The position numbers were made by a program, and so were the translations under genes. The notes beneath the pieces are model-generated. The model made no database searches. It worked only from the letters and a program-made list of their open reading frames with translations, and was not told the DNA's origin. DNA of 64,000 nucleotides from the NCBI GenBank assembly GCA_945876945.1, contig CAMCQE010000004.1, positions 3,096 through 67,095 of the forward strand, in the 5' to 3' direction. Below, one piece after another: positions 43,344 through 63,501 of the stretch (position 1 is its first letter; each line of letters opens with the position of its first letter). This DNA comes from Klebsiella pneumoniae (GTDB lineage Bacteria > Pseudomonadota > Gammaproteobacteria > Ga0077536).

Positions 43344-44285
43344 TTGCCGCACGAGGTCGCTCCGTTACGCATGGGCTGGGAACTTCTTTTGACCGATTTG
43401 CCGCGGGGTGAAACCAGCGGCCGCACGTATGCGCAGTCGACGGTGAGAATCGGCCGCAACCCGGACTGCGAACTCATCCTCAAGCACAATCAGGTTTCCC
43501 GCCTGCACCTCACGCTGAGCAAAGAAGGCGAGAAGTATTTCGCCGAAGACTCCAGCAGTAATGGCACGTTTCTGAAAGACGGCACCGGCTGGCAGCGCTT
43601 ACAGGGCAAGAGCGAACTCCAACTCCCCACCACGCTGCGGCTCGCCGACTGGACGTTGCGCGTAGATTACGAAGCGGAGGCAGATTGGGACCGTTCGGTC
43701 ATTATCCCGGCCGGCCATCTCGCCAAAAAAGTTGAGGCCATTCTGGTCTTTGACCTCTGCGAGTCGTCCAAACTGGCCAATCAGGACGACCAGATGGCGC
43801 TGCATCTCAAAAATCGCCTCATGCAAATCGCCGAGCCGCTGCTCAACGAGCACGGCAAGACCTTCATCAAGAGCACGGGCGATGGTTTCCTCGCCACGCT
43901 GGCGTCACCGACCAAGGCGCTGGTGGCGGCACTGGAGCTAGAGCGCCGCATTCAAGCCCGCAATGCCAAAACAGATAACGCCCCGATTCACTACCGCATC
44001 GCGCTTCACCATGGCGACGTCTGGGGTGTGGCCGGGAGCGAGCAGGACATTCACGGCAACGACATCAACATCACCTTCCGGATTGAAGGGGTGCAAGCCG
44101 AAGCCTTCCCGAACGCCAGCACGGAGTTCCCGCGCATGGACCGCGTGCTGTGCTCCGCCTCAATGCTGGCAACCGTGAGCGCCGAAAGCCTCCTGCCATC
44201 AGGTTTCGAAGCAATCGAAATTGGCGAGGCCAATCTGAAAGGCATCGCGGATCCCACCCGCATCGTCTGGTTAAAAACCCGCTAG
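43344..44285 (+). CDS. FHA domain fused to a class III nucleotidyl (adenylate-type) cyclase domain
   Basis: The FHA part reads VRIGRNPDCELILKHNQVSRLHL...SSNGTFL. The cyclase part has VFDLCESS, FIKSTGDGF and GNDINITFRIEG. The start is either TTG at 43344 or ATG at 43371. Confidence 0.75.
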   Translation: MPHEVAPLRMGWELLLTDLPRGETSGRTYAQSTVRIGRNPDCELILKHNQVSRLHLTLSKEGEKYFAEDSSSNGTFLKDGTGWQRLQGKSELQLPTTLRLADWTLRVDYEAEADWDRSVIIPAGHLAKKVEAILVFDLCESSKLANQDDQMALHLKNRLMQIAEPLLNEHGKTFIKSTGDGFLATLASPTKALVAALELERRIQARNAKTDNAPIHYRIALHHGDVWGVAGSEQDIHGNDINITFRIEGVQAEAFPNASTEFPRMDRVLCSASMLATVSAESLLPSGFEAIEIGEANLKGIADPTRIVWLKTR

Positions 44286-49094: not shown

Positions 49095-50260
49095 CCGCGA
49101 CCGAAGCGCGTGATGGCGGGACTGTTGCGCAACCAGAGGCCCAGCAGCCCGACCATCACCCCGGCGCCTCCGAGCGCCAGCGGATAGCCGTAGGCATCGA
49201 CCAAGTGCCCCAGCAAGATCACCCCAATGCTTTGCCCGGCGAACAACGCGAACGCAAAAATGGCAAAGGAAGTGCCGCGCGCGCCCGGCAACAGCTCGGT
49301 GGCGAGGGTCTGCAACGTGCTATGCATCATGTAGAACCCAAGCCCCATCAAGGCGATGAGCGGCGGCGCGCCCCACCACACCGGCAACCAGGTGAGCGTG
49401 ATCAAGCTCCACGCCACAACCGCGCCGCCAAACATCACCATGCCCTGTCGGCCCAGCAGTTTCAGCATGCGTCCGGCGGTGAAGCTGTAGCAGAGCCCAC
49501 CCACCCCGTAGGCGATGAGAATCAGGCCAATCAGGGTAAAGCTCAGATGGTGTTGGGCATGAAGCAAAGCGCCGATGTAGGCCAGGCTGCCAAAAATACA
49601 CAGGCCTTCAATAAACGCCGCCGTCATCAGATCGGCGGCCATCGGGTCGCGGGTGAGGGTCCAGTAGCGACGCAGCGTTTGCATGAGCGAAATCGCCGGC
49701 CCCAGCGGCAGAGATACCTCTTGCTGCGCCAGCCGCCAGAGCATGAGCGCGATCCCGCTCACCGCGATCCCGAACACCACAAAAATCGCGCGCCAGCCAA
49801 TGAGGTCGGAGAGGATCCCGCCGAGGCCCGCGCCAAACATCTGGCCGAAAATGACGCCGCTCATGTAGCGGGCAATCGTGGCCTGACGACTTTCCAGCGG
49901 CACATGATCACCAATGTAGGCCAGCGAAAGCGGGACGGTGGCGGCGGTGGTCACGCCGGTGAGAAAACGCCACAGCGCCAACATGGGCAAAGAGGTGGCG
50001 AAGGCGCAGGCGGTTACGCAAAAGGCAGCCGCCATCAGGGTGAGCGCGATGATCCGCAGCTTGCCGTAGCGATCGCCCAGCGGCCCGTACAGCAGCAGAA
50101 AAAGGCCATAGCCGATCGCAAAGCTCGTCACCACCACGCCCGCCTGACCCGCGGTAACGTGGAACTCCTGCGCGAGCACCGGCACTAGCGGGTCGCTCAC
50201 GCGCATGATGGCAATCACCACAAAGCCGGCAAGACTCAAGGCAGGAATAAGAACGGTCAT
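49091..50260 (-). CDS. MFS transporter
   Basis: It has about 12 hydrophobic segments and a GPLGDRYGK loop motif. It overlaps the downstream gene by 4 nt. Confidence 0.8.
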   Translation of the reverse strand: MTVLIPALSLAGFVVIAIMRVSDPLVPVLAQEFHVTAGQAGVVVTSFAIGYGLFLLLYGPLGDRYGKLRIIALTLMAAAFCVTACAFATSLPMLALWRFLTGVTTAATVPLSLAYIGDHVPLESRQATIARYMSGVIFGQMFGAGLGGILSDLIGWRAIFVVFGIAVSGIALMLWRLAQQEVSLPLGPAISLMQTLRRYWTLTRDPMAADLMTAAFIEGLCIFGSLAYIGALLHAQHHLSFTLIGLILIAYGVGGLCYSFTAGRMLKLLGRQGMVMFGGAVVAWSLITLTWLPVWWGAPPLIALMGLGFYMMHSTLQTLATELLPGARGTSFAIFAFALFAGQSIGVILLGHLVDAYGYPLALGGAGVMVGLLGLWLRNSPAITRFGRG

Positions 50261-50392
50261 CGGCGGCTCAATTCAGATAGGCCGCCGGATGATAAACAGT
50301 GGTGCCACCCGCCGCGAGCGATTTGCTTGCGGTCTCCGCATGCGCCTGCGTACCCTGCCCCACCTTTCACGCCCCCCCCATTGGAGTTGCCC

Positions 50393-51175
50393 ATGAGCGC
50401 ACGACTGCTTGGTAAAACCGCCCTGATTACCGGCGCCTCCCGCGGCATCGGCCTCGCTATTGCCGAGGCCTTCGCGCGTGAAGGCGCCAACCTCGCGCTC
50501 AACGCGCGCGACCCCGTCAAACTGCAAGAAACCGCCGACGCGCTGGCTGCCGCCCACGGTGTGCGCGTGACGGCCCATGCTGCCGACGTGACCGACCGCG
50601 ACGCCATGCAGCGCATGGTCCAGAACGTGGAAGCCGAAGGAAACATCGACGTGCTGGTGAACAACGCCGGCATCCACAAGGCGCGCCCGTTTCTGGAATA
50701 CACGTTTGAAGATTTCCGCGACGTGCTGGAAACCAACGTCTACGGCGTCCTTCACGTCACGCAGTTCGTGCTGCCGGCGATGATTGCGCGCAAGCACGGG
50801 CGCGTCATCAATCTCGCCTCCACGGCCGGCAAAGGCGGCACGCGCAATCAAAGCGCCTACAACGCCTCCAAGCACGCGGTGGTCGGTTTAACCCGCTGCC
50901 TCGCGCTGGAGATGTCTGCCCACAACGTGCTGGTGAACGCCATCTGCCCGTGGGTGGTGGATACCGACATGGCCACCGGCTTCATCAGTGAGCACGCCAA
51001 AAATCTGGGGATTGATGTGGAACAGGCCACCAGGAACTTCCTGTCGATGGTGCCGATCAAGCGCTTCATTCGCCCGGAAGAAGTGGCGAATCTCGCGGTG
51101 TTCCTGGCCTCGGATGAATCGAGCTATGTGAACGGCCAAAGCTGGGCCGTGGATGGCGGGTATTCGATGATCTGA
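50393..51175 (+). CDS. SDR-family oxidoreductase
   Basis: TGASRGIG, NNAG and YNASK catalytic motifs are present. I chose the internal ATG at 50393. Confidence 0.85.
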   Translation: MSARLLGKTALITGASRGIGLAIAEAFAREGANLALNARDPVKLQETADALAAAHGVRVTAHAADVTDRDAMQRMVQNVEAEGNIDVLVNNAGIHKARPFLEYTFEDFRDVLETNVYGVLHVTQFVLPAMIARKHGRVINLASTAGKGGTRNQSAYNASKHAVVGLTRCLALEMSAHNVLVNAICPWVVDTDMATGFISEHAKNLGIDVEQATRNFLSMVPIKRFIRPEEVANLAVFLASDESSYVNGQSWAVDGGYSMI

Positions 51176-51188
51176 GGCAATCGCCGCG

Positions 51189-51896
51189 CTAGTAGTCGCG
51201 CCGCCGCGGTCGCCGGTAGCCGTCGGTGGCGCCGCGGAACGCGGGGGTGCGCCCCACCAGACTCTCAATCAGCGTGAGTTCGGCGTCGGTATGGTTTTTG
51301 AAGCTGGCCTTGCGGATGCGCTGCCCAACAGGGCCCTCGCGCAAGATGTAGCGCGACTCGTGATGGCCGGCTTCCACAGTGGCCTGTGAGCTGGCATCGT
51401 CCAGCGCGGCCAGATCGGTGATGCCATAGCAAGTGCAGATGTAATCCCGGTCGGGCTCGACTTCGCAATAAACGCCGGTGCCCCGGATCCCGATCTGTGC
51501 GGTAACGGTCCGGATGCGGTGCGGCCGATGCGCGAACACCGACAGCAGTGCCCCGGTGAGCAGACGCAATCCCTGCGCCAGCGTGTTGTCGCCCGGTGGC
51601 GGATTGATTTGCAGGCGCGAGTTGGGGCGCAGGATGAAAGCGTCGCTTTCAATGCGAAACACGATTTCGCCGTCGGCGCCGGTTTCGATGAGATCACTGC
51701 CAAAAATTCGCATGGTGGGTGCTGCGGGCTTGCCGTTGACCAGTACCGTGCCTCTCAGCAGATAGATCGAGCGACCGGCGATCATCTCTGCCGCTTCCAC
51801 CACGCCGGCCGGTGCCCAGCCGCTGGCCATCGCCCCCAGCGCGGCAAGCAGCAGCTGGCGGCGAGCCGGATCGACTTCTTCATCGTGAGCGCGCAT
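51189..51896 (-). CDS. Periplasmic FecR-domain-like protein with Tat-like leader
   Basis: The leader is RRQLLLAALGAMA. A FecR-like segment GTVLVNGKPA..FGSDLIETGADGEIVFRIESDAFILRPNSRLQI follows, and the C-terminal part is Cys-containing. Confidence 0.45.
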   Translation of the reverse strand: MRAHDEEVDPARRQLLLAALGAMASGWAPAGVVEAAEMIAGRSIYLLRGTVLVNGKPAAPTMRIFGSDLIETGADGEIVFRIESDAFILRPNSRLQINPPPGDNTLAQGLRLLTGALLSVFAHRPHRIRTVTAQIGIRGTGVYCEVEPDRDYICTCYGITDLAALDDASSQATVEAGHHESRYILREGPVGQRIRKASFKNHTDAELTLIESLVGRTPAFRGATDGYRRPRRRDY

Positions 51897-51984: not shown

Positions 51985-52839
51985 TTGCGCCTTGCTATTC
52001 CACTTTTCTTCGCCGTCGCGGCGCTGCCGCCCGCCACCCTGGCCGCCTATGAATCCGACCTCGGCCTTGCGGTCCATTACGACGACAACCTCTCCCGCGC
52101 CGAGCGCAGCGGCGACCGCATCCCCGACACTGCCTTTGAGCTCAGCGCTCACCTCAGCGCCCCGGCACTGGAAACGTCTCGCAGCACGCTGCGCTGGGAT
52201 GTGGGGCTCACCGCTCAAATCTGGACCCAACACGCGGCACTCAGCGAGTTCGCGCCGTCCGCAGGGCTCCGCTATCGCTATCGAATGGGGCCTGATTTCA
52301 GCGCGCCCTGGGTCGAAGCCGGCTTCTCGGCCCGCGCGCTACAGCACGCAGACAGCGTGATGCGGGATGGCGGCGAAGTGCTGGGCGGACTGACGCTCGG
52401 GCAACGCCTTACCGAGCAGCTGGACGCGCGGCTTGGCTATCGCTGGCGGGTACGGCGGGCGGAAAAAGAAGCGGTGTTCGATCTCGAAAACCACGAAGGC
52501 TTTGTGCAACTCGACTTCCAGCTGGACGAGCGCTGGCTGGTCTACGGTGGATTTACCGCCCGCAGCGGGGATTTGGTCACGGTCAGCAAGGTGCCCAATC
52601 GCAAGGCCTTAAGCAGCGCCAGCGCCATCAGCCGGGGTTTCGATTTTGCCTTCGGCGACACGCCACGGCGCGCTTATCGCATCGACGGACTCACGCTAAG
52701 CCCGGCGCTTGGGCTCAATTATTTGTTGGCAGAAGGCTGGTCGCTGGATCTGGTCGGCGATGGCCTGGTGGCGCTAGCAGACGGGGATAACACCTATCAC
52801 CAGTTCAGCCTGACGCTCAGCCTGCTCTGGCAGTTCTAG
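51985..52839 (+). CDS. Hypothetical outer-membrane beta-barrel protein
   Basis: It starts at TTG with the signal peptide MRLAIPLFFAVAALPPATLAA. It shows an alternating strand pattern and a terminal LLWQF. Confidence 0.5.
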   Translation: MRLAIPLFFAVAALPPATLAAYESDLGLAVHYDDNLSRAERSGDRIPDTAFELSAHLSAPALETSRSTLRWDVGLTAQIWTQHAALSEFAPSAGLRYRYRMGPDFSAPWVEAGFSARALQHADSVMRDGGEVLGGLTLGQRLTEQLDARLGYRWRVRRAEKEAVFDLENHEGFVQLDFQLDERWLVYGGFTARSGDLVTVSKVPNRKALSSASAISRGFDFAFGDTPRRAYRIDGLTLSPALGLNYLLAEGWSLDLVGDGLVALADGDNTYHQFSLTLSLLWQF

Positions 52840-53037: not shown

Positions 53038-56000
53038 CTAGTGCGCCAACAAGCGATCCAGCCACTGGTTGGAAAGCTTTTCCTGCACCGTGTTCTGACG
53101 CAGGCGCGCCCGCAGGTGGTCGAAGTCCACGAGATCGAGCGGCTGATCCTGATTGAAGCAGGAATACACAAAGCTCTCTTCGCCGGTCTTCGGATCCACC
53201 TGTCGGCACATGCACTGCGCGCAAACGCCTTTCATCATGCACTGCATCGGCGAGTTGATAGACCCAATCGCCTGATGACCCTCTTTGAGGTAGGGCGCCA
53301 ACATGCCGCTGCGAGCTTTCTTCACGGCGTTCATCATGCCGTCGGAGCCAATGACCACCATTTCCTCGGCGTCCGACAGCGGGATCGTCACCTCACCCAG
53401 CGCGCCGCTGGCGTAGGCCACCATCGTCTCGAGGATATTGCCCACAAAGGTCTTGTCCTGCGGACGATTGGGGGTGATGGCTTCCACGCCCGGACCCGGG
53501 TCGCAGCACCACACCACCACGTCGGCGGCGGCTTCGATATCGCTGACCTTGAAGACGTCGATCGCCTTCTTGTAGCCCGCGAAATACACCACCTTGTTGC
53601 CGGCCGCACGCAGCGCCTTGCCGATGGAGAACAACACCGCGTTGCCCAGACCACCGCCGACCATCGCCACCGTGGTGTTCTGCGGGATGTGCGTCGGCGC
53701 ACCGGTCACGCCCATCACCACCAGCTGTTCGCCCGGCTTGAAGTGCATGAGGAGGCGCGAAGAGGTGCCCATTTCGAGCGCGATCAGCGACACCAGACCT
53801 TCTTCCGGGTTGACCCAGGCGCCGGTCAGGGCGAGGCCTTCGGTGGAGAGTTTGGTGTCACCCACCAGCTGGGCGCGCGAATCGAAGTTCTGCACGCGAT
53901 AGAACTGGCCGGGCTCAAAGCGACGCGCGGCATATGGCGCACGCGCGATGACTTCGACGATAGTCGGGGTGAGGCGATTCACCTCCACCACCCGCGCAAT
54001 CAGTGCGTCGTCGAGGATGCCGAAGAACTGCTGCATGGCCGCGTCGCGACCCGGCTGCTCAGCCGGCGCCAGACCTGCGCGCTCTTCCGCAAACAGATTG
54101 GCGATGTAGGGATAGCCATCCTTCGCGCTCGCCATGGCCTTCACCACGTTGCCGGCGTACACCGGGTGGTTATCGCCGTAGAAGCTCACGTAACGGCCGT
54201 GCTTCTGGTAGGAGGTGAACGGCGCGGGTTCGCCGAGTTTCGGCCCGCCATCGCCGGTACCGGGACGCAGCGTCGGCTGGGCGCCGGCGGTTTCCGGTTC
54301 GTAATGGGCGAAGAACTTGCCGTTGAGTTCAAAGGTGCCGGGGTTTTCGGACTGATAAATGGTGTTGGGCGAAGTGCCCGCCGCCACGAACAGGCCGCGC
54401 AAGGCAACTTCCACCCTGGACTTGCTGCCGTCGGCTTCGAGCTTCTCGAAAATCACCCCGCGCAGCGCGCTGAATTCATCCGTCAGGGTTTCCAGCGGAT
54501 TCATGTTCGGCGCGAGCTGAATGCCTTCGGTCAGCGCTTCGTTAATTTCTTCATGGTTCTGGCGATAGGCCGGCGAGTCGGCGATGGTCTTGCGATAGAA
54601 CATCGTCACGCCGCCCCAGCCGTTGATTAAGGGCGCGAAGTCAGGCGCCTCTCCGGCGGCAGCGGCGCGCGCCCGTTCGGCGCGCAGGGCCTTACCGTGG
54701 CTCAGGAACTCATCAAGAATCCCCAGTTCTTCCTTGTCGAAGCGCGCCCGCACTTTCTCTTCGCCCTGATCCTGCACCAGAATTTCGTAGCGCTTGAGGA
54801 TCTTGTCGACCTGACGCGGGTAATAGGCCATCAGTTCGGTGGTGGTATCAATGGCGGTCAGACCGCCGCCGATGACGCCACAGGGCAGGCGCACCTGCAG
54901 ATTGGCCATGGAGTCGTCCTTGGCCGCGCCGGTGAGCTGCAAGCCCATCAGGAAGTCCGACGCCTTGCGCACGCCGCGCACCAGATTGCCCTTCAGCCCA
55001 ATGACCGAAGGCTTGCCCGCACCGGTGGCCAGCGCCACATGGTCGAAGCCAAAGTCCCAGGCATCTTCCAGCGTCATGGTGCCGCCAAAGCGCACGCCGC
55101 CGAACACGCGGAACGACTGACGGCGCAGCAGCGTGAGGTAGATGACCTTCAGGAAGTTCTTGTCCCAGCGCACCGTGATGCCGTATTCGGCCACGCCGCC
55201 AAAACCGCTCACGACGCGGCTGTCGAGTTCCTCATACAAGGTTTTGAATTTGGCCACCGGATTTGGCGCCTGATCGACCGTGCCCGTGAGGCTTTCCGGC
55301 AGCGGCTCAAGCTTGAGCGCGTCAATGCCTACCACCGCAAAGCCTTCGTTCAGCAGGTAATGCGAAAGCGTGTATCCGGCCGGGCCCATGCCCACCACCA
55401 GCACCTTGCGGCCATTGAACGGCAGCATGTAGGGGCGCTTCACATTGAGTGGATTCCAGCGCGTGAGCAGACCATAGATTTCGAAACCGTAGGGCAGGTC
55501 CAGCACGTCGGTCAGGACGTTGGTTTCGATTTGCGGAATGTTGACCGGCTCGGTCTTCTGGTAGATGCAGCCCTTCATGCAGTCGTTGCAAATACGGTGA
55601 CCGGTGCCCGGGCACATCGGGTTGTCGACCACCACCAGCGCCAGCGCGCCGATGTTGTCGCCCTGCCGCTTCAGCACGTGCATCTCGGAAATCTTTTCGC
55701 CCAGCGGACAGCCGGCGGCGGTCACGCCCAGCGCGTTGACCTTGAAGCTGTTGTCTTTCTTGTTGCGCATGCCCTTCGAGCAGGAATCGGCGTCGCGGTC
55801 ATGGCAGTAAATGCAGTGATCCACTTCGTACAGCACGTGGCGCTGGCCATAGCGCTGGTCGGTGAGCTTGAAACCATCGCGACGGCGGCGATGATTCTCC
55901 GGGCCCATCCAGGTGCTGAAGCCGCTGCGCTGGTTTTCGATGAAATGCACCAGATGCTGCACATCGGTCTTGGCCGGTTCTTTGAAAATCACCCAGTGCG

Positions 56001-56652
56001 CGGCAGTCGGCCAGGTCACCGCGCCGGTGGAGATGAGGAAACCCCACTCGGCGAAGGACTGTTCGGCGGCGGCCAACTGCGCGGTGGTGTCGCCGCCTTC
56101 GGGCAAATTGGCGAGAAAGGTGGTGGAGGCCTCAAGCAGGCCGGCGCTCATCAGACCGGCACGGGCAATCGCGTATTCCTCGTCACCCGGACGGCGGCCG
56201 TCGCTGGTGGCAGCGGCGCCGAGTTTGCGCACCAGGGCCGTGAGGCTGTCGAAGCGCGAAGCGTCAACGATCTGGCCTTTGAAGCGCTTGGCCAGCGTCG
56301 CCACAAATTCGTTGCGGAACTTGAGCACCGTGTCGTCTTCGTCCCGAATGGCGGCACGCTGCCCGCCCCAGGCCTGTTCGATCCCGAAGAGTTTGGCCAC
56401 GAAACTGCCCACGTGCGGGGCGGTGTCGGTCAGTACGGCGGAGATGTCTTCCGGCGTCATGCCGGTGCCCTGATTGGCGCAGTACGTGGCATAGCGGGCG
56501 GAGAGTTCGGGATCGGCGGCCTGCAGTTGCGACTTGAAGTCACCGTAGAGTCGGGCCAGCGCCGCGGGGTCGTACAGATCGGCATAGCCATAGCCCGACA
56601 GGCCGAGGGTCAAGGGGGACGCAGCGTTTGCGTCAGCATGAGTGGCAGTCAT
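53038..56652 (-). CDS. Large fused iron-sulfur flavoprotein: novel N-terminal domain + GltD/NfnB-like domain + PyrK/NfnA-like ferredoxin-reductase domain
   Basis: The ATG at 56652 follows a GGAGAC Shine-Dalgarno sequence. Cys clusters are HCIYCHDRDADSC, GCPLGEKISEM and CPGTGHRICNDCMKGC. Rossmann motifs are KVLVVGMGPAGYT and VIGGGLTAIDT. An FNR-like RFEPGQFYRVQNF and MVGGGLGNAVLFSIGKAL follow. The C-terminal cluster is CMMKGVCAQCMC....SC. Confidence 0.75.
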   Translation of the reverse strand: MTATHADANAASPLTLGLSGYGYADLYDPAALARLYGDFKSQLQAADPELSARYATYCANQGTGMTPEDISAVLTDTAPHVGSFVAKLFGIEQAWGGQRAAIRDEDDTVLKFRNEFVATLAKRFKGQIVDASRFDSLTALVRKLGAAATSDGRRPGDEEYAIARAGLMSAGLLEASTTFLANLPEGGDTTAQLAAAEQSFAEWGFLISTGAVTWPTAAHWVIFKEPAKTDVQHLVHFIENQRSGFSTWMGPENHRRRRDGFKLTDQRYGQRHVLYEVDHCIYCHDRDADSCSKGMRNKKDNSFKVNALGVTAAGCPLGEKISEMHVLKRQGDNIGALALVVVDNPMCPGTGHRICNDCMKGCIYQKTEPVNIPQIETNVLTDVLDLPYGFEIYGLLTRWNPLNVKRPYMLPFNGRKVLVVGMGPAGYTLSHYLLNEGFAVVGIDALKLEPLPESLTGTVDQAPNPVAKFKTLYEELDSRVVSGFGGVAEYGITVRWDKNFLKVIYLTLLRRQSFRVFGGVRFGGTMTLEDAWDFGFDHVALATGAGKPSVIGLKGNLVRGVRKASDFLMGLQLTGAAKDDSMANLQVRLPCGVIGGGLTAIDTTTELMAYYPRQVDKILKRYEILVQDQGEEKVRARFDKEELGILDEFLSHGKALRAERARAAAAGEAPDFAPLINGWGGVTMFYRKTIADSPAYRQNHEEINEALTEGIQLAPNMNPLETLTDEFSALRGVIFEKLEADGSKSRVEVALRGLFVAAGTSPNTIYQSENPGTFELNGKFFAHYEPETAGAQPTLRPGTGDGGPKLGEPAPFTSYQKHGRYVSFYGDNHPVYAGNVVKAMASAKDGYPYIANLFAEERAGLAPAEQPGRDAAMQQFFGILDDALIARVVEVNRLTPTIVEVIARAPYAARRFEPGQFYRVQNFDSRAQLVGDTKLSTEGLALTGAWVNPEEGLVSLIALEMGTSSRLLMHFKPGEQLVVMGVTGAPTHIPQNTTVAMVGGGLGNAVLFSIGKALRAAGNKVVYFAGYKKAIDVFKVSDIEAAADVVVWCCDPGPGVEAITPNRPQDKTFVGNILETMVAYASGALGEVTIPLSDAEEMVVIGSDGMMNAVKKARSGMLAPYLKEGHQAIGSINSPMQCMMKGVCAQCMCRQVDPKTGEESFVYSCFNQDQPLDLVDFDHLRARLRQNTVQEKLSNQWLDRLLAH

Positions 56653-56851
56653 GAGTCTCCGGGCGCAGTCTTGCGCAGCTGAGGGTTGAACCATACGGTA
56701 ACGTATGGAATTGTAAGGACACGACCGCAAGCCCGCAACGCGCGCGGGCCACGGCCAGTGTCGGCAGCCGCCTGTCGTCAAACAATTGCGCGCGAAAGCC
56801 GCCGCCGGGACTGGTATCACGCGCCCGGCACAACAGAGAGAGAGTCATCCC

Positions 56852-57925
56852 ATGGATTTCGGCATCACGTTTCCGACCTATATCCGCTGCTGGCAAGACG
56901 CCCAAATGGCGGAGGACTACGGCTTCACGCACGCCTGGTTCTACGATTCCCAGATGTGCTACAGCGACGTCTATGCCAGCATGGCGCTGGTCGCGCACCA
57001 CACCAAAACCCTCAAAATCGGCACGCTGGTGTCGATCCTCGGCAACCGCATTGCGCCGGTCACCGCGCACTCCATTGCGACCATTAACGAACTTGCTCCC
57101 GGGCGAGTGATTCTGGGGGTGGGGACGGGCTTCACCGGTCGCAACGTCATGGGCATGCCGCCCATCTCGCTCAAGACCATGCGCGAACACATCGAGATCA
57201 TTCGCGACCTGCTATCCGGGCGCGAAGCCGTGTATCGCGAGGGCAGCCGCGAGCGCCACATCAAGTTCATCCACCCGGACCTCGGCTATATCAACGTCAA
57301 GGACCACATCCCGATCCACATGGCCTCCAACGGCCCGAAGGCCATTGAGATGACCGGCCAACTGGCGGAGGGCTGGGTTACGATTGGGCTTGATCCGGGC
57401 TACATCTCGCACAACATCCAGCAGATCAAGGCCGCCGCCAAGGCGGCCGGACGCGAGATGGGCGAGGTGTATTGCACCAATCTGACTTCGGCTTGCGTGC
57501 TGCGGCCGGGCGAATCCATTCTTTCAGACCGCGTCGCCAAACAGATCGGGCCAATGGCCATCCTGCTGCTGCACACCAACTGGGATCCGACCGACATCAA
57601 GGTCGGCCCGTTTGCACCGCCCTCAGTCGCGGGACAGGCCAAGGCCTACTTCGACAATCACATCATGAACATGAAAACCGCCATGGACCGGCGCTTCCAG
57701 GAAATGCACCTCGGACATCTGGTGTTTATGCGGGAAGGCGAACGGGCTTATCTCACACCGGAACTGATCAAAGCTGGCACGCTCACCGGTTCTGGCCCGG
57801 AAATCATCGACCGTATCCGCGAACTGGAAGCCGCCGGGGTGACCAACATCGCGTTGAATGTGTGCGGGACCGATGCTCGCGAATTGATTCGCGAATTTGG
57901 CCGGGAGGTCATCGATAAGTACTGA
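56852..57925 (+). CDS. Luciferase-like (LLM class) flavin/F420-dependent oxidoreductase
   Basis: MDFGITFPT......AEDYGFTHAWFYDSQM and GVGTGFTGRN fit the LLM family. I chose the internal ATG at 56852. Confidence 0.8.
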   Translation: MDFGITFPTYIRCWQDAQMAEDYGFTHAWFYDSQMCYSDVYASMALVAHHTKTLKIGTLVSILGNRIAPVTAHSIATINELAPGRVILGVGTGFTGRNVMGMPPISLKTMREHIEIIRDLLSGREAVYREGSRERHIKFIHPDLGYINVKDHIPIHMASNGPKAIEMTGQLAEGWVTIGLDPGYISHNIQQIKAAAKAAGREMGEVYCTNLTSACVLRPGESILSDRVAKQIGPMAILLLHTNWDPTDIKVGPFAPPSVAGQAKAYFDNHIMNMKTAMDRRFQEMHLGHLVFMREGERAYLTPELIKAGTLTGSGPEIIDRIRELEAAGVTNIALNVCGTDARELIREFGREVIDKY

Positions 57926-58024: not shown

Positions 58025-58951
58025 TTAAAAGTCGACGTTATCGCGCCCTTTCAGCTTGAGCATTTGCCGCGCTTCCGCCGGCGTCGCCACTTCCAGCGAC
58101 AGCGCTTCGATCACCGTGCGAATCCGGCGTACCTGCGCCGCGTTGGTTTGCGCAAGATTACCGGGACCATCCCACAGCGAGTCTTCGAGCCCTACCCGCA
58201 CCATGCCACCCATTGCGGCCGACATCGTGGCGATCGGGATCTGGTTGCGCCCGGCGCCCAACACCGACCAGAGATAGTCATCGCCGAACAGCCGATCGGC
58301 GGTGCGCCGCATGTGCACCACATCTTCAAAATGTCCGCCGATCGCGCCGCGCAGACCAAACACCGACTGAATCAGCAGCGGCGGTTTGATCAACTGGCGG
58401 TCGAGGAAATGCGCGGCGGTGTACAAATGCCCGATGTCGTAGCACTCGATTTCAAATCGCGTCTGGTTATCGCTGCAGGACTCGAGGATGTAGGCGATGT
58501 CGCGGAAAGTATTGCGAAACACCCGGTCTTCGCTGCCGGCGAGATACGGCTTCTCCCAGTCGTATTTGAATTCCTTGTGGCGCCCGATCATCTCGTAGAG
58601 CCCGAAATTCATCGAACCCATATTGAGCGAAGCGACTTCGGGCTTGAGTTGTAGCGCCGGCAGCAGGCGTTCCTCGACCAGCATGGTCGGCGCGCCGCCG
58701 GTGGTGAGATTGATCACCACATCCGACGCTGCCTTGATCTGCGGGCAAAACTCGCGGAACAGGGCCGGGTCTTGCGAGGGCAGTCCATCTTCCGGCTTGC
58801 GCGCATGCAGATGCACGATGGCCGCGCCGGCTTCGGCGGCGCCCAAGGCAGCGGCGGTGATTTCCTCCGCCGTGATCGGCAGATACGGTGACATGGTGGG
58901 CGTGTGGATCGCGCCGGTCACCGCGCAGGTAATGATGACTTTTCTCGACAT
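58025..58951 (-). CDS. BKACE-family (3-keto-5-aminohexanoate cleavage enzyme-like, DUF849) protein
   Basis: VIITCAVTGAIHTPTMSPYLPITAEEI..AGAAIVHLHAR is the typical BKACE N-terminus. Confidence 0.85.
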   Translation of the reverse strand: MSRKVIITCAVTGAIHTPTMSPYLPITAEEITAAALGAAEAGAAIVHLHARKPEDGLPSQDPALFREFCPQIKAASDVVINLTTGGAPTMLVEERLLPALQLKPEVASLNMGSMNFGLYEMIGRHKEFKYDWEKPYLAGSEDRVFRNTFRDIAYILESCSDNQTRFEIECYDIGHLYTAAHFLDRQLIKPPLLIQSVFGLRGAIGGHFEDVVHMRRTADRLFGDDYLWSVLGAGRNQIPIATMSAAMGGMVRVGLEDSLWDGPGNLAQTNAAQVRRIRTVIEALSLEVATPAEARQMLKLKGRDNVDF

Positions 58952-58963
58952 TGCGGGGCTCGC

Positions 58964-59602
58964 TTACTTGGCGGACATCGCAGCAAATGCCGCCTGTTGG
59001 GCCGCATCGACCTGCTGAGTCGTGGCGCGCGCCTTGATGCGCTCCAGCACCGCGCCGAGACCCGGCACTTCCGCCACGATGTCCCAACCATACACGGCCT
59101 TCAGCGCGATCGCCGCATAGCCCAGCGTGTAGTAAGCATAGATGTCGACCAGCGAGAACCGATCCCCACACAGCCACTCGCCCTCCCCCATCAACTGCTG
59201 GACGGCGACGAGCCCTTTTTCCACCGTCGGCCGCACTTCTTCCACGGCGGCGTCAGACTTGGGACCGCCAAAGAACACGTGACCGAAATGACGCCGACCC
59301 GGTAGCTCGATGTAGAGCTCCAGTACGCGCATCAACTCGCGCGCCTTGGCGCGCGCGAACGCTGACTGCGGCAAATGCCCCGGCTGCTGTTCTTCCAGAT
59401 AGTCGAGGATGACGCCGGTCTCCGAAATAAAGCCTTCTGCCACTTCAATGCACGGCACTTTGCCCATCGGGCTCTTGGCCTTGTACGCGCCTTCCTGACT
59501 CGGTCTGGCCGCGACTTCCTCGAACGCGAGCCCCTTCTCCAGCAGCGCAAGTTTGACCATGTTGAAATAGTTACTGACCGGGAAACCGTAGAGCTTGATC
59601 AT
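58964..59602 (-). CDS. Glutathione S-transferase
   Basis: It starts MIKLYGFPVSNYFNMVKLALLEKGL and has the GST N- and C-domain organisation. Confidence 0.85.
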   Translation of the reverse strand: MIKLYGFPVSNYFNMVKLALLEKGLAFEEVAARPSQEGAYKAKSPMGKVPCIEVAEGFISETGVILDYLEEQQPGHLPQSAFARAKARELMRVLELYIELPGRRHFGHVFFGGPKSDAAVEEVRPTVEKGLVAVQQLMGEGEWLCGDRFSLVDIYAYYTLGYAAIALKAVYGWDIVAEVPGLGAVLERIKARATTQQVDAAQQAAFAAMSAK

Positions 59603-59632
59603 GAGTTGTTCCTCTCTTTTAACGAATCAATT

Positions 59633-62254
59633 TCAGGACTTGTGGTGCCGCGCCTGCCACCGCTCCACGGCGGCCATCAAGGCCGGCAGCATGATGAGCG
59701 CACTCAGGAGCGCGTAGGCCAAAGACAGCGAAATGAGCACGCCCATCCCGCCCATGCCCGGATGTTTGGAAACCGCGAGCGTGCCGAACGACGCGACCGC
59801 CGTCAGGCCGCTAAACCACACCGCGCGTGGCGTGCTGCTTTCCAGCAGCGGATTCACGCCCTCGGTGTGCTTGCGGCGCACGACCAGATAAGCGCCGTAG
59901 GCGTTGTTCAAGCCAATCAACAGCGGCAAGGCAATGATGTTGGCAAAATTGAGCGGGAAATGGCTCAACACCGAGGTAGCCAGCGTGAGCAGCATGGCCA
60001 GCACCAGCGGCGCAGCCACCAGCAGTGCGTCCACCCAACCGTGCAGCACCAGCGCGTGGAGCAGAATGGTGAGAATGAGCGCACCCAGCGAGGCCTTGAC
60101 GCAGGCATCGATCACCACATCGCTGCCGATCACGAGCTCCACCGGCCCGCCGGTGGCCCCAGCGTCCGCGCCCTGCACTTCCTGCACAAACTGGCGCATG
60201 GCGGCGGTGTCATTCAGGTTCTGGCGCGGATAAACCTCGACACGGGCACGCCCGTCGGGGGCGAGATAGCGGGCCTGCAGGTCGTCGGGCAAATCGTTCA
60301 CGGTGACCGCGCTGGCGTCGAGCAGTTTGCGCAAACGCTGGAGCGTCTGGGGCAAATCGCCCAACAGCTGCGCGCGCAAGGCCGGCATTCGCGCTTCGAG
60401 TTGCGCCGGCTCGGCGTTCACCTGCTTGAGCGCGTCGGCCAACCGACTCGCCGCCGCCTGCGCTTTGGCGTCGCTCAAACTCGACTGCCGCTCGGCCAGT
60501 GTGCGCATGAACGCCTGCAGCGCGGCCGCTTCCGCTTGCGCCGAGGGCTGCGCCGCCGGCGCCACGTCAATCACCCCGGTCATCGCGGTGCGCATGCCGT
60601 CGATGATGTCCAGCTTTTCGGTCTGCCCTTCGGGCACCAGGCTGTTGAGCGTGATGACTTTGTCCACGCTTGGCAGCTCGGCAATTTTGGCCGCGCTGGC
60701 ATCGGCGGCGGCCAGCGAGGGACTCAGGATTTCAATCGTGTACGGCGTGCTGATGGGATCGTTCGCCAACGCCAGAAAGGCCTGTACGGAAGGACTGTTG
60801 CGATCCTTCAAATTGGCGGGATTGGGATCGAATACCACCTGCGGCATCAAGGCCGCGCTCAACAGTGCGAGCAGGCCCGAGCCCACCAGCACCGTGGTGC
60901 CGTGCCGCCCCAGCAGCGCGGCCAGCCGACTTGGGCGGGCGTCGTCCCGCCGCAGACGAAAGCGCGGCACGCCCACCAGCGACAGCAGCGCCGGCAGCAG
61001 TGTGATATTGGCCACCAGCGCCAGCGCCATGCTGAAACTCGAAATCACGCCCAACTGCGCGAGCCCGCGATAGCTGGTGGGCACAAAGGCCGCGAAACTG
61101 ATCGCAGCCCCCACCGCCGCCAGCACCAGCGCCCCGCCGGCCCCATCGCCCGCCGCGCTTAATGCCTCGGTACGGCGCTTCCCATGCCCGCACTCCTCCA
61201 GATAGCGCATGGCGAACTGGATCCCGAAATCTACGCCCATCCCGATAAACAGCACCGCAAAACACACCGAGATGATGTTGAGACTGCCGACCAACCAGGT
61301 CGCCAGCGCCGCGGTCCACACCAGACCACAGGCCAGCGTGACCAACACCGCGACCACCAACACCGGCGAGCGCAGGCCCCAAATCAGCACCAGCGCGACG
61401 GCGCCAAATGACAACACGGTGGTCAGCCCCGCGTCGTCGGCCACTGTGACCAGTTCTTCGCCGTCCATCGGCACCGGACCGGTCACATGGAATGACACCT
61501 CGGGCCAGTCTTTGGCCATTTGGCCCAGCAGCACGTGCAGCGCGTCGACCGCGTCTTGCTCGGGCTGGAAAGAAGTCTTGGCGCGGGCGGGGTCGATCAG
61601 CACGAAGGCGCGTTGCGGGCCGCCCCGGTCTGGAAAGAGTTCGTCCTGCCAATGCACCGCCCGCCCGCCGGGGGCCTCGAGGGTCGTCGCCAGACGGTCG
61701 AACATCCGCCGCAACAGCTGCTGCTGGCCGGCGTCGAGGGGCTGATCCAGCGCGGTGCGCATGGTCTGGAAAAGCCCGCTCAGGCTTTGGTCGTGGGCCA
61801 GCGAGCCGAGCAGCGGCGCGGCTTGCGCCAGGCGTTCATCGATTGTCCAGAGTTCGTCCGGCGAGAGATAGAGCAGACCGTGGGTAGCGAAGTACTCGCC
61901 GCCACCGGGCTGCGAAAGCGCGTGGGCGATATCCGGACGCTTACGCAAGGTGGCGACCAGCGCGTCTGCCGCGTCTTCGGCGAGTCCGGCGTGGGCGGAC
62001 TCCGCATAGACCACGACATCGCCGGGCAGATGCGGGAAGGCCTTGGCGAGTGCGATATTGGCCTGCCGATGCGGCAGGCGCACGTCGATCATGTCGCTGG
62101 TATCGGTATCGATGCTGATGTTGTTCGCGGTGTAGTACAGCGCGTAGGCCGTCAATAACACGCCGCCCAACAGCACCAGCCAGGCCTGTCGGACCGACCA
62201 CGTCACCGTGGCGTGAACCAATTTTCGCGGGAGATTTTTCAGCGTGGGTGACAT
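59633..62254 (-). CDS. MMPL/RND-superfamily exporter, HpnN-like
   Basis: At 873 aa it has two six-helix bundles separated by large periplasmic domains. The N-terminal pattern (...YYTANNISIDTDTSDMI) resembles hopanoid-transporter-type MMPL proteins. Confidence 0.7.
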   Translation of the reverse strand: MSPTLKNLPRKLVHATVTWSVRQAWLVLLGGVLLTAYALYYTANNISIDTDTSDMIDVRLPHRQANIALAKAFPHLPGDVVVYAESAHAGLAEDAADALVATLRKRPDIAHALSQPGGGEYFATHGLLYLSPDELWTIDERLAQAAPLLGSLAHDQSLSGLFQTMRTALDQPLDAGQQQLLRRMFDRLATTLEAPGGRAVHWQDELFPDRGGPQRAFVLIDPARAKTSFQPEQDAVDALHVLLGQMAKDWPEVSFHVTGPVPMDGEELVTVADDAGLTTVLSFGAVALVLIWGLRSPVLVVAVLVTLACGLVWTAALATWLVGSLNIISVCFAVLFIGMGVDFGIQFAMRYLEECGHGKRRTEALSAAGDGAGGALVLAAVGAAISFAAFVPTSYRGLAQLGVISSFSMALALVANITLLPALLSLVGVPRFRLRRDDARPSRLAALLGRHGTTVLVGSGLLALLSAALMPQVVFDPNPANLKDRNSPSVQAFLALANDPISTPYTIEILSPSLAAADASAAKIAELPSVDKVITLNSLVPEGQTEKLDIIDGMRTAMTGVIDVAPAAQPSAQAEAAALQAFMRTLAERQSSLSDAKAQAAASRLADALKQVNAEPAQLEARMPALRAQLLGDLPQTLQRLRKLLDASAVTVNDLPDDLQARYLAPDGRARVEVYPRQNLNDTAAMRQFVQEVQGADAGATGGPVELVIGSDVVIDACVKASLGALILTILLHALVLHGWVDALLVAAPLVLAMLLTLATSVLSHFPLNFANIIALPLLIGLNNAYGAYLVVRRKHTEGVNPLLESSTPRAVWFSGLTAVASFGTLAVSKHPGMGGMGVLISLSLAYALLSALIMLPALMAAVERWQARHHKS

Positions 62255-62343
62255 GGGTTTCCGCTAGGAGAGCAGCACAGGAGGCGCTGGACGCAGCGCA
62301 TTCTGGCGGAAGCCGGGCCGGGACGCGACCCGGCCTATCAGGA

Positions 62344-63501
62344 CTAGAGCACGCGGTCGGCCTGCAGCGCCGCTAACTCGGCTTCTGAATAGCCCAGCGC
62401 GCGCGCGATTTCCGCCCCGTGCTCACCAATGCCCGGCACGTGCGCACCTGGCTTGCCCGGCTCGTGGCGATACATCACCGGCACGCCCAGCATGGGCATC
62501 CCGGCTTCGTCTTCGACCAGCATGCCGCGCGCGGCCGTGGCCGGGTCATACAAGCCTTCATAGAGGGTGCGCAGCGGCGCGTAGCAGACATCGATATCTG
62601 CCAGCCAGTCCAGCCAGTGGGCCAACGTCTCCTGCGCAAAAAACGATTCGAGGAATTCCCGGACCGGCTGCTGCGCCGGTCCCGGCACTTCGTGGGTCAG
62701 CGGCAGGAGGTCTGGCCGACCGGCCTTATTCAGCAAATTGGCGCAGAAATGATGTTCCATGCCGCCCAGCACCAGATGCTTGGCGTCGGCCGTGGCGTAA
62801 ATGTTGTAGAACGCCGCGCCGCCCCAGTTACGCTCCATGGGCACATCGTGACCGCGCTGCTCCACAAACGCAGGTCCGGCGTAGTTGCTGGTCCATGCCA
62901 GCACCGAGTCGTGCAGGGCGATGTCGACGTAATCGCCCTGCCCGGTCTGCCGCTGGCGGAGCAAGGCCATCAGCACGCCCGAGAAGGCGATGAGCGAACC
63001 CGCCATATCGGCCGCCGGCATGCCGGGGTTGGTCGGTTTGCCGTCGCGTCCGCGATGGAAGTCGAGCGTACCCGCCAGCGCTTCAATGGCGATGTCGTGC
63101 GCGGGCTTATCGCGATAGACACCGGTCTGGCCGAAGGCAGAAATCGAGCAATACACAATCTGCGGGGCGTGCGCGCGAACCGTGTCGTAGTCTAACCCCA
63201 GGCGCTTCATCACGCCGGGCCGAAAACCCTCCACCAGCACGTCGGCGTCGGCCAGCAGCTTGAACAGGAATTCCCGGCCGCGCGGGTCTTTGAGGTTCAG
63301 CTGCACGCTGCGCTTGCCGCGATGGGTGTTACGGAACCACACGCTGTGGCCGCCCTGACTCAAGCCCAGCTGTCGCGCGGGCTCACCACCGGGGGGCTCG
63401 ATGCGGATCACGTCCGCACCGTGGTCGGCCATCATCATCGTGAAATGGGGCCCGGGCAAAAACATGGAAAGGTCGACGACTTTAACGCCCGCAAGCTTCA
63501 T
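62344..63501 (-). CDS. Family III CoA-transferase (CaiB/BaiF)
   Basis: MKLAGVKVVDLSMFLPGPHFTMMMADHGADVIRIEPPGG is the typical N-terminus. The catalytic Asp region is present. Confidence 0.85.
   Translation of the reverse strand: MKLAGVKVVDLSMFLPGPHFTMMMADHGADVIRIEPPGGEPARQLGLSQGGHSVWFRNTHRGKRSVQLNLKDPRGREFLFKLLADADVLVEGFRPGVMKRLGLDYDTVRAHAPQIVYCSISAFGQTGVYRDKPAHDIAIEALAGTLDFHRGRDGKPTNPGMPAADMAGSLIAFSGVLMALLRQRQTGQGDYVDIALHDSVLAWTSNYAGPAFVEQRGHDVPMERNWGGAAFYNIYATADAKHLVLGGMEHHFCANLLNKAGRPDLLPLTHEVPGPAQQPVREFLESFFAQETLAHWLDWLADIDVCYAPLRTLYEGLYDPATAARGMLVEDEAGMPMLGVPVMYRHEPGKPGAHVPGIGEHGAEIARALGYSEAELAALQADRVL

Follow-up and report, generated by a model that had tools for sequence, protein, structure and literature searches.

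The closest described relatives of the gene considered here are the Nfn transhydrogenases known from anaerobes (NfnAB, and NfnI of Pyrococcus furiosus), which are assembled from two separate subunits and hold their [2Fe-2S] cluster with one Asp and three Cys. The stand-alone NfnB/GltD-like protein CAC0764 of Clostridium acetobutylicum is an NADPH-specific ferredoxin:NADP+ oxidoreductase (PMC9365771), as are NfnB proteins and the related Fnors (Huang et al., 2025; PMC12221290), while NfnII/Xfn of P. furiosus, although it has the two subunits, shows no bifurcation with NAD(H) (PMC12221290). Liang et al. (2019; PMC6405883) noted uncharacterised Nfn homologues in Proteobacteria and Actinobacteria, termed ‘Pattern C’, in which the B module is fused ahead of the A module. 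A 64,000-nucleotide stretch of contig CAMCQE010000004.1, all of which is referred to here as the window, carries at 53038..56652 on the minus strand the gene for a single-chain, Nfn-like iron-sulfur flavoprotein of 1204 amino acids (aa). The near-complete mutual exclusion of this RP005-type gene and Fpr across genomes is a new observation.

Fpr, together with flavodoxin or ferredoxin, is in textbook accounts the proteobacterial single-electron supply to iron-sulfur assembly, radical S-adenosylmethionine (SAM) enzymes and the final steps of isoprenoid synthesis. Because genomes almost never carry the Nfn-like gene and Fpr together, the Nfn-like protein probably passes electrons from NADPH to ferredoxin, and it is proposed, at a probability of roughly 0.55, to be a general NAD(P)H:ferredoxin oxidoreductase, cytoplasmic and self-sufficient, that does the job of Fpr in Escherichia coli and Pseudomonas. 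By analogy, the protein would work like Nfn, Xfn or Fnor and be distributed like Fpr. The likeness to Fpr would be one of role and not of family, since Fpr is a 250-aa protein whose only cofactor is flavin adenine dinucleotide (FAD), whereas the protein described here is unrelated to it in size and cofactors, with only its C-terminal module distantly resembling the ferredoxin-NADP+ reductase (FNR) type.

Mutual exclusion between the Nfn-like gene and Fpr

Fpr-like genes were scored as matches to the NF008178 profile. Among 201 gammaproteobacterial genomes, each from a different family (the class sample), the Nfn-like gene is present in 43 and an Fpr-like gene in 69, and no genome carries both, where 14.8 would be expected (P ~8e-10). 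Exclusion persists when only the 55 strong Fpr matches are counted (P ~1e-7), and in about one fifth of the gammaproteobacterial families sampled, Fpr is absent and this large enzyme is present instead. A phylum sample of 301 genomes, each at least 90% complete, holds the Nfn-like gene in 30 (23 of them outside the window’s class) and an Fpr-like gene in 159, with both present in a single genome against 15.8 expected (P ~1e-9). Within the order to which the window belongs, sampled as 81 genomes from one family and 18 genera, the Nfn-like gene occurs in 50 and a true Fpr (258-284 aa, 127-165 bits) in five, with no overlap (3.1 expected); these five belong to three genera, all devoid of the Nfn-like gene. 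Genera likewise alternate between the two genes in f227, a family of another class.

PntB served as a control. Of the 201 class-sample genomes, 106 have PntB, and 23 of these also carry the Nfn-like gene, against 22.7 expected, a chance-level figure which indicates that the exclusion is specific to Fpr and that the Nfn-like enzyme is no stand-in for PntAB; substitution for PntAB was rejected as a candidate role on this ground. The same result bears on a classical role, in which the enzyme would form NADPH from reduced ferredoxin and NADH as the anaerobe-type transhydrogenase does. Although the nearest solved relatives, NfnAB and NfnI, are of this kind, a substitute source of NADPH should show some relation to PntAB, of which the presence of the gene is independent, and the strong exclusion is with Fpr, a ferredoxin reductase rather than a transhydrogenase. 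Among the carriers, moreover, are lineages that have aerobic members in culture (Methylococcales, Myxococcus, and other myxobacteria), in addition to uncultured Acidobacteriota, and such organisms are not known to have an obvious large source of reduced ferredoxin. A classical transhydrogenase is thus very unlikely.

The gene content of the window’s genome is compatible with a missing Fpr. No match to NF008178 was found there, nor any tblastn match with an Fpr probe that had been validated against NF008178, and tblastn with a FldA probe returned no FldA-like flavodoxin. Only three FNR-type NAD-binding proteins are encoded, namely PaaE, CysJ, and a BenC-like oxygenase reductase, none of which is Fpr. 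Ferredoxins are represented by a YfhL-family 2[4Fe-4S] protein (131 bits, cut-off 86) and FdxA (171 bits, cut-off 135), and PntB is present as well.

Several points weigh against assigning the job of Fpr to the Nfn-like enzyme. The exclusion statistics treat genomes as independent, without phylogenetic correction, the exclusion in the window’s own order is weak at genus level (P ~0.10), and the test within Myxococcota is consistent but powerless. Both genes are absent from 89 of the 201 class-sample genomes (44%), so that other reductases must exist, and in the window’s genome a reductase of the thioredoxin reductase (TrxR) type or adrenodoxin-reductase type, beyond Fpr, is possible. Both genes are found together in an alphaproteobacteria-side genome (G437) and in four large genomes of Myxococcota and Planctomycetota. 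A plain NADPH:ferredoxin job requires neither the NfnA-like module nor the N-terminal domain described below, and no experimental characterisation of any family member was found in the literature.

Some of these points would be accommodated if phylogeny or ecology had produced the exclusion as a side effect and the real acceptor were another, perhaps an Xfn-like third substrate handled with the help of the N-terminal domain. The disregarded kinship of the genomes and the share of them that lack both genes leave room for this, as do the N-terminal domain and a conserved junction behind it, neither of which has an assigned role. It is nonetheless improbable, as the exclusion recurs in two classes and inside two single families whose sister genera differ, and the PntB control displays no such pattern. 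The job of Fpr, performed with NADPH and ferredoxin, is retained as the preferred role.

Two further observations were made in these samples. The genomes in which the Nfn-like gene stands beside a convincing Fpr are G437, from the phylum sample, and G207, G210, G215, and G220, with G207 and G215 measuring ~12 Mb. In a gammaproteobacterial genome of 1.7 Mb, a full-length PntB match (G038:C3:17785-19086; model positions 13-455, 457.7 bits) contains three in-frame TAA stops, which could reflect a pseudogene, an assembly error, or stop-codon reassignment.

Domain architecture and cofactor ligands

The open reading frame (ORF) that contains the gene spans window positions 53038..56820 on the minus strand, and within it the complete coding sequence (53038..56652) extends from an ATG at 56652 to a TAG stop at 53038-53040. 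A Shine-Dalgarno-like GGAG (56657..56660, minus strand) lies 6 bases upstream of this ATG, and the start matches the N-termini of aligned homologues, in agreement with the single-chain frame of about 1200 aa that an initial annotation of the window had placed at 53038-56652. An identical 1204-aa protein serves as the cluster representative (P0002). The gene is present as a single copy in its 3.8-Mb, 97%-complete genome, and tblastn of the protein against that genome returned itself alone, with no paralogues. The gene is real and intact, an ordinary representative of the RP005/PRK06567-type family.

The chain begins with an all-helical, family-specific N-terminal domain (residues 1-250; 55903..56652, minus strand, as are all features of the protein), followed by a junction motif, RRRDGFxLTDxR (residues 256-267; 55852..55887), and a domain for two [4Fe-4S] clusters (residues 276-400; 55453..55827). 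NfnB/GltD-like FAD and NADPH domains (residues 401-860; 54073..55452) come next, and the protein ends in an NfnA/SudB/PyrK-like FNR-type FAD/NAD(H) module (residues 880-1204; 53041..54015) that contains an all-Cys [2Fe-2S] site, C1138-x5-C1144-x2-C1147-x17-C1165 (53158..53241). The initial annotation had described an NfnB/GltD-like middle and a C-terminal FNR-type module of the NfnA/PyrK/SudB kind, fused in the order B-A behind an N-terminal domain, and had suggested profile-based domain mapping and structure prediction as checks; both establish the two modules and their order.

Pfam matches, from a library lacking PF27156, are limited to Pyr_redox_2 at residues 416-629 and a weak Fer4_20 match at 312-380. 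In the middle region the NfnB/SudA-type model TIGR01316 scores 83.7 bits against 33.6 for the GltD model TIGR01317, and PRK12778 and NF005128 also match there. At the C-terminus, the NfnA/SudB-type model PRK06222 matches residues 887-1053 with 70.6 bits, against 19-34 for the PyrK models. By profile score, true GltD and PyrK are further from the two modules than NfnB/SudA and NfnA/SudB are. The GltD models TIGR01317 and TIGR01318 (20.6 bits) fall far short of their cut-offs near 450-480, and no gltB adjoins the gene in the window or in 80 related loci spanning six or more phyla. Cut-offs for the PyrK models are 219-314, only the spacing of the all-Cys cluster is PyrK-like, and pyrD is not a neighbour at the window locus. 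Pattern C proteins share the order of B then A on one chain, but they measure ~950 aa, and their model PRK12779 matches only the C-terminal module here, with 104.6 bits against a cut-off of 1519.

Structural comparison leads to the same relatives. A sequence search of the PDB returned only NfnI and NfnAB chains and their relatives, with the C-terminus matching 5jca_S and 4ylf_A. The AlphaFold2 (AF2) model of the protein, built on 30 cross-phylum sequences, has a predicted local distance difference test score (pLDDT) of 83.5 and a predicted template modelling score (pTM) of 0.85. When this model was compared with solved structures by Foldseek, the middle region gave target-normalised template modelling (TM) scores of 0.79 to 5jfc_L and 0.73 to 4ylf_B, with 5jca_L within 0.73-0.79, and the C-terminal module gave 0.83 to 5jca_S and 0.82 to 4ylf_A, so that both modules share the folds of NfnB/NfnI-L and NfnA/NfnI-S, respectively. 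Xfn (5VJ7) also matches by fold. Sequence identity to the Nfn structures in these alignments is only ~18-24%. CAC0764, the Fnors, and Xfn share with the protein a module with two [4Fe-4S] clusters and FAD, though they come from anaerobes, lack the N-terminal domain and, except for Xfn, lack an A-like module.

Motifs in the NfnB-like region comprise GMGPAGY (421-427), GGGLTAID (595-602), and FYRKT (685-689), all conserved, and those in the NfnA-like module comprise LALTGAW (940-946) and the conserved nucleotide motif GGGLGNA (999-1005). Mean identity is highest in the Fe-S domain (78%), followed by the A-like (66%) and B-like (64%) modules, and lowest in the N-terminal domain (32%). The A-like module, being no less conserved than the B-like one, is probably functional. 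AF2 secondary structure places a family-specific helical insert at ~600-675 in the NADPH domain.

Thirteen of the 17 Cys residues of the protein lie within three motifs. In an alignment of the 30 cross-phylum sequences (50-86% identity), C280, C283, C291, C315, C355, C358, C362, and E376 are invariant, and C347 is ~90% conserved. In the HMMER alignment, the C..C..C...E of P. furiosus NfnI-L falls on C355/C358/C362/E376; in NfnB, one of the two clusters is ligated by three Cys and one Glu. The seven Cys and one Glu of the protein together form a candidate ligand set for two [4Fe-4S] clusters, following the NfnB pattern. C1138, C1144, C1147, and C1165 are invariant in the same alignment, which supports the terminal [2Fe-2S] site of the initial annotation, although the spacing is C-x5-C-x2-C-x17-C and not the CxxxxCxxC...C given there. 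At the aligned position, P. furiosus NfnI-S has D-x4-C-x2-C. The junction is conserved to a similar degree, with R256, R258, G260, F261, L263, T264, D265, and R267 invariant among the 30 sequences, and R257 invariant only in a 25-sequence alignment (A1).

Judged from these motifs, the protein would share with NfnAB its terminal [2Fe-2S] cluster, its two FAD sites, and its pair of nicotinamide-nucleotide motifs, as well as seven Cys and one Glu as ligands of the two [4Fe-4S] clusters. It differs in joining B and A on one chain, in its extra 250-aa helical N-terminal domain and helical inserts in the NADPH domain, and in its all-Cys [2Fe-2S] site. It also differs in occurring in lineages with aerobic cultured members, where the gene stands alone in the genome. 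The protein is neither NfnAB, GltD, nor PyrK.

The N-terminal domain resembles nothing in the PDB. The AF2 model of residues 1-280 contains eight long helices with a mean pLDDT of 85 (mostly >90 in the helical core), but no fold match was found in the PDB, the best Foldseek E-value being 0.67 with TM at or below 0.2. The first ~270 residues have no Pfam or NCBIfam match apart from partial coverage by NF005128, again with a Pfam library lacking PF27156; the initial annotation had left some 300 N-terminal residues unassigned. Precomputed annotation places PF27156.1 on P0002 and on nearly all of the 120 listed homologues, and the domain aligns across phyla. An exhaustive HMMER search of 1.84 billion representatives with this domain gave 835 matches, among which no stand-alone or otherwise fused version was found, all eight short matches inspected being fragments that continue into CIYCHDRD; the domain is seen solely joined to the Fe-S domain. 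Its conservation is the lowest in the protein, and it is acidic, with a net charge of about -9, features which favour a structural role over catalysis or the docking of ferredoxin. The idea that it offers acidic ferredoxins a basic surface to dock on was rejected on account of this acidity.

Proposed electron flow and the question of bifurcation

Substrates, direction of electron flow and any bifurcation are inferred from the architecture and distribution described above. As the NfnB-type module alone is competent in the literature, a route from NADPH through FAD and two [4Fe-4S] clusters to ferredoxin is taken as the core path. NADPH would reduce the FAD of the NfnB-like module, from which electrons would pass singly over the two [4Fe-4S] clusters to a small ferredoxin, for which the window’s genome offers FdxA and the YfhL-type protein. 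The NfnA-like module, with its FAD, all-Cys [2Fe-2S] cluster, and second nucleotide site, may act as a further gate for electrons at the same central flavin. This gate could admit electrons from NADH, or it could be the high-potential exit of a reversed Nfn, in which two NADPH would yield one NADH and two low-potential ferredoxins.

The second of these options corresponds to a true bifurcating Nfn running in reverse of the anaerobes (2 NADPH + NAD+ + 2 oxidised ferredoxin → 2 NADP+ + NADH + 2 reduced ferredoxin), with a high NADPH/NADP+ and a low NADH/NAD+ ratio pushing ferredoxin to about -450 mV or lower. Such a mechanism refines the preferred reading without contradicting it. The candidate cofactor set of Nfn is complete on one chain, including a Glu ligand typical of NfnB, and the NfnA-like module with its invariant GGGxG nucleotide motif is conserved like the B-like module. 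The PntB of the window’s genome could hold NADPH reduced, and the YfhL-type ferredoxin is at hand as an acceptor; ferredoxins of this type have very low potentials. However, the cofactor set does not predict bifurcation, as illustrated by NfnII/Xfn (PMC12221290). The all-Cys [2Fe-2S] site, where NfnA has Asp and three Cys, probably shifts the potential of the high-potential branch, and PntB co-occurs with the gene at background rate only. Reversed bifurcation is a possible refinement, of modest probability.

Extending this mechanism to the whole RP005-type family, as a single-chain and oxygen-compatible bifurcating enzyme that works as Nfn in reverse and splits the electrons of NADPH between NAD+ and ferredoxin, is more doubtful. 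Were it true, Fpr-less aerobes, probably including Rickettsiales, would possess a ferredoxin more reducing than NADPH, and electron bifurcation would be a housekeeping device in aerobes, beyond a speciality of anaerobes. Should the enzyme serve as a ferredoxin reductase and also bifurcate, it would be the first bifurcating enzyme to play a general part in aerobic organisms. As a ferredoxin reductase, the preferred role, it would supply a missing piece of the metabolism mapped for methanotrophs, myxobacteria, Acidobacteriota, and many uncultured lineages. The exclusion with Fpr hands the family a concrete, testable role. The enzyme is a target for biochemistry and not a new kind of enzyme.

Family, distribution and gene neighbourhood

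The best profile match of the protein is NF005128/PRK06567, which has the same domain order and reaches 603.9 bits, below the curated equivalog cut-off of 1072, with the best stretch covering model positions 207-689 only. This partial coverage indicates a sister subfamily and not the Rickettsiales equivalog, PRK06567 being modelled on Rickettsiales proteins. None of 43 gammaproteobacterial relatives reaches the cut-off, and these match the model from ~5 to ~925. The initial annotation had regarded a well-characterised family covering the full length as fatal to its proposal, and the only full-length families found were NF005128/PRK06567, catalogued under a ‘putative’ name, and PF27156, from the precomputed annotation. 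The family name was guessed from domain names, and papers on the Rickettsiales protein repeat the database name without testing it. Were the enzyme a ferredoxin reductase, the long-standing annotation ‘glutamate synthase beta / 2-polyprenylphenol hydroxylase’ would be misleading and stand corrected.

The family is large. All 8000 candidates that were scored matched, and more than 8000 homologue clusters, at 50-86% identity, are spread over several phyla. Gammaproteobacteria, among them Methylococcus, Methylocaldum, and Methylomagnum, have full-length relatives at 60-86% identity, and relatives at 50-57% come from Acidobacteriota, Myxococcota, Planctomycetota, Nitrospirota, Ignavibacteriota, and Gemmatimonadota. 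The single-chain architecture is widespread, not rare.

Clustering of ORFs in the 80 related loci revealed no conserved partner gene, and the synteny seen is at lineage level only and involves unrelated housekeeping genes (rfbB/rfbD-like, recN, lipA, an ABC ATPase, and an asparaginase-like gene). No small ferredoxin gene lies beside it in these loci, according to a motif scan that covered ORFs of 50 aa or more. The gene behaves as a stand-alone housekeeping gene. Its neighbours in the window are also unrelated to it, and include a luciferase-like monooxygenase (56786-57925, plus strand), which is divergently oriented and begins 133 bp upstream.

These neighbourhoods bear on whether the enzyme is a dedicated donor to one partner, such as a ferredoxin-type sulfite or nitrite reductase, a GltB-like or dihydroorotate dehydrogenase (DHOD)-like protein, or this monooxygenase. 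The closeness of the monooxygenase would favour a dedicated link, but it is not a recurrent neighbour across the loci and was rejected as a partner, and no other conserved adjoining partner appears in the 80 loci. The genome also encodes a flavoprotein of the CysJ type, as used for sulfite reductase. Rickettsiales have very small genomes and keep the related PRK06567 protein, a retention that fits a general role better. Dedicated donation is thus unlikely, and a general ferredoxin reductase is preferred to it.

Beyond the monooxygenase, a same-strand run at 58025-63501 (minus strand) encodes a beta-keto acid cleavage enzyme (BKACE), a GST, an 873-aa MMPL-family transporter, and a family III CoA-transferase, and may be a small catabolic cluster unrelated to the Nfn-like gene. 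Just downstream of the gene, the regions 50257-51896 (minus strand) and 51985-52839 (plus strand) contain a weak FecR-like match, two ORFs without a Pfam match, and a weak DUF481-like match. In a metagenome-assembled genome of Methylovulum, the region of the [2Fe-2S] motif recurs ~1.1 kb downstream of the orthologue (L018:10745-10865; query residues 1133-1176, 71-81% identity), and may be left over from a duplication or belong to another gene that has this cluster motif. Elsewhere in the window, a 313-aa ORF at 43344-44285 (plus strand) combines an FHA domain with a weak match to an adenylate/guanylate cyclase catalytic domain.

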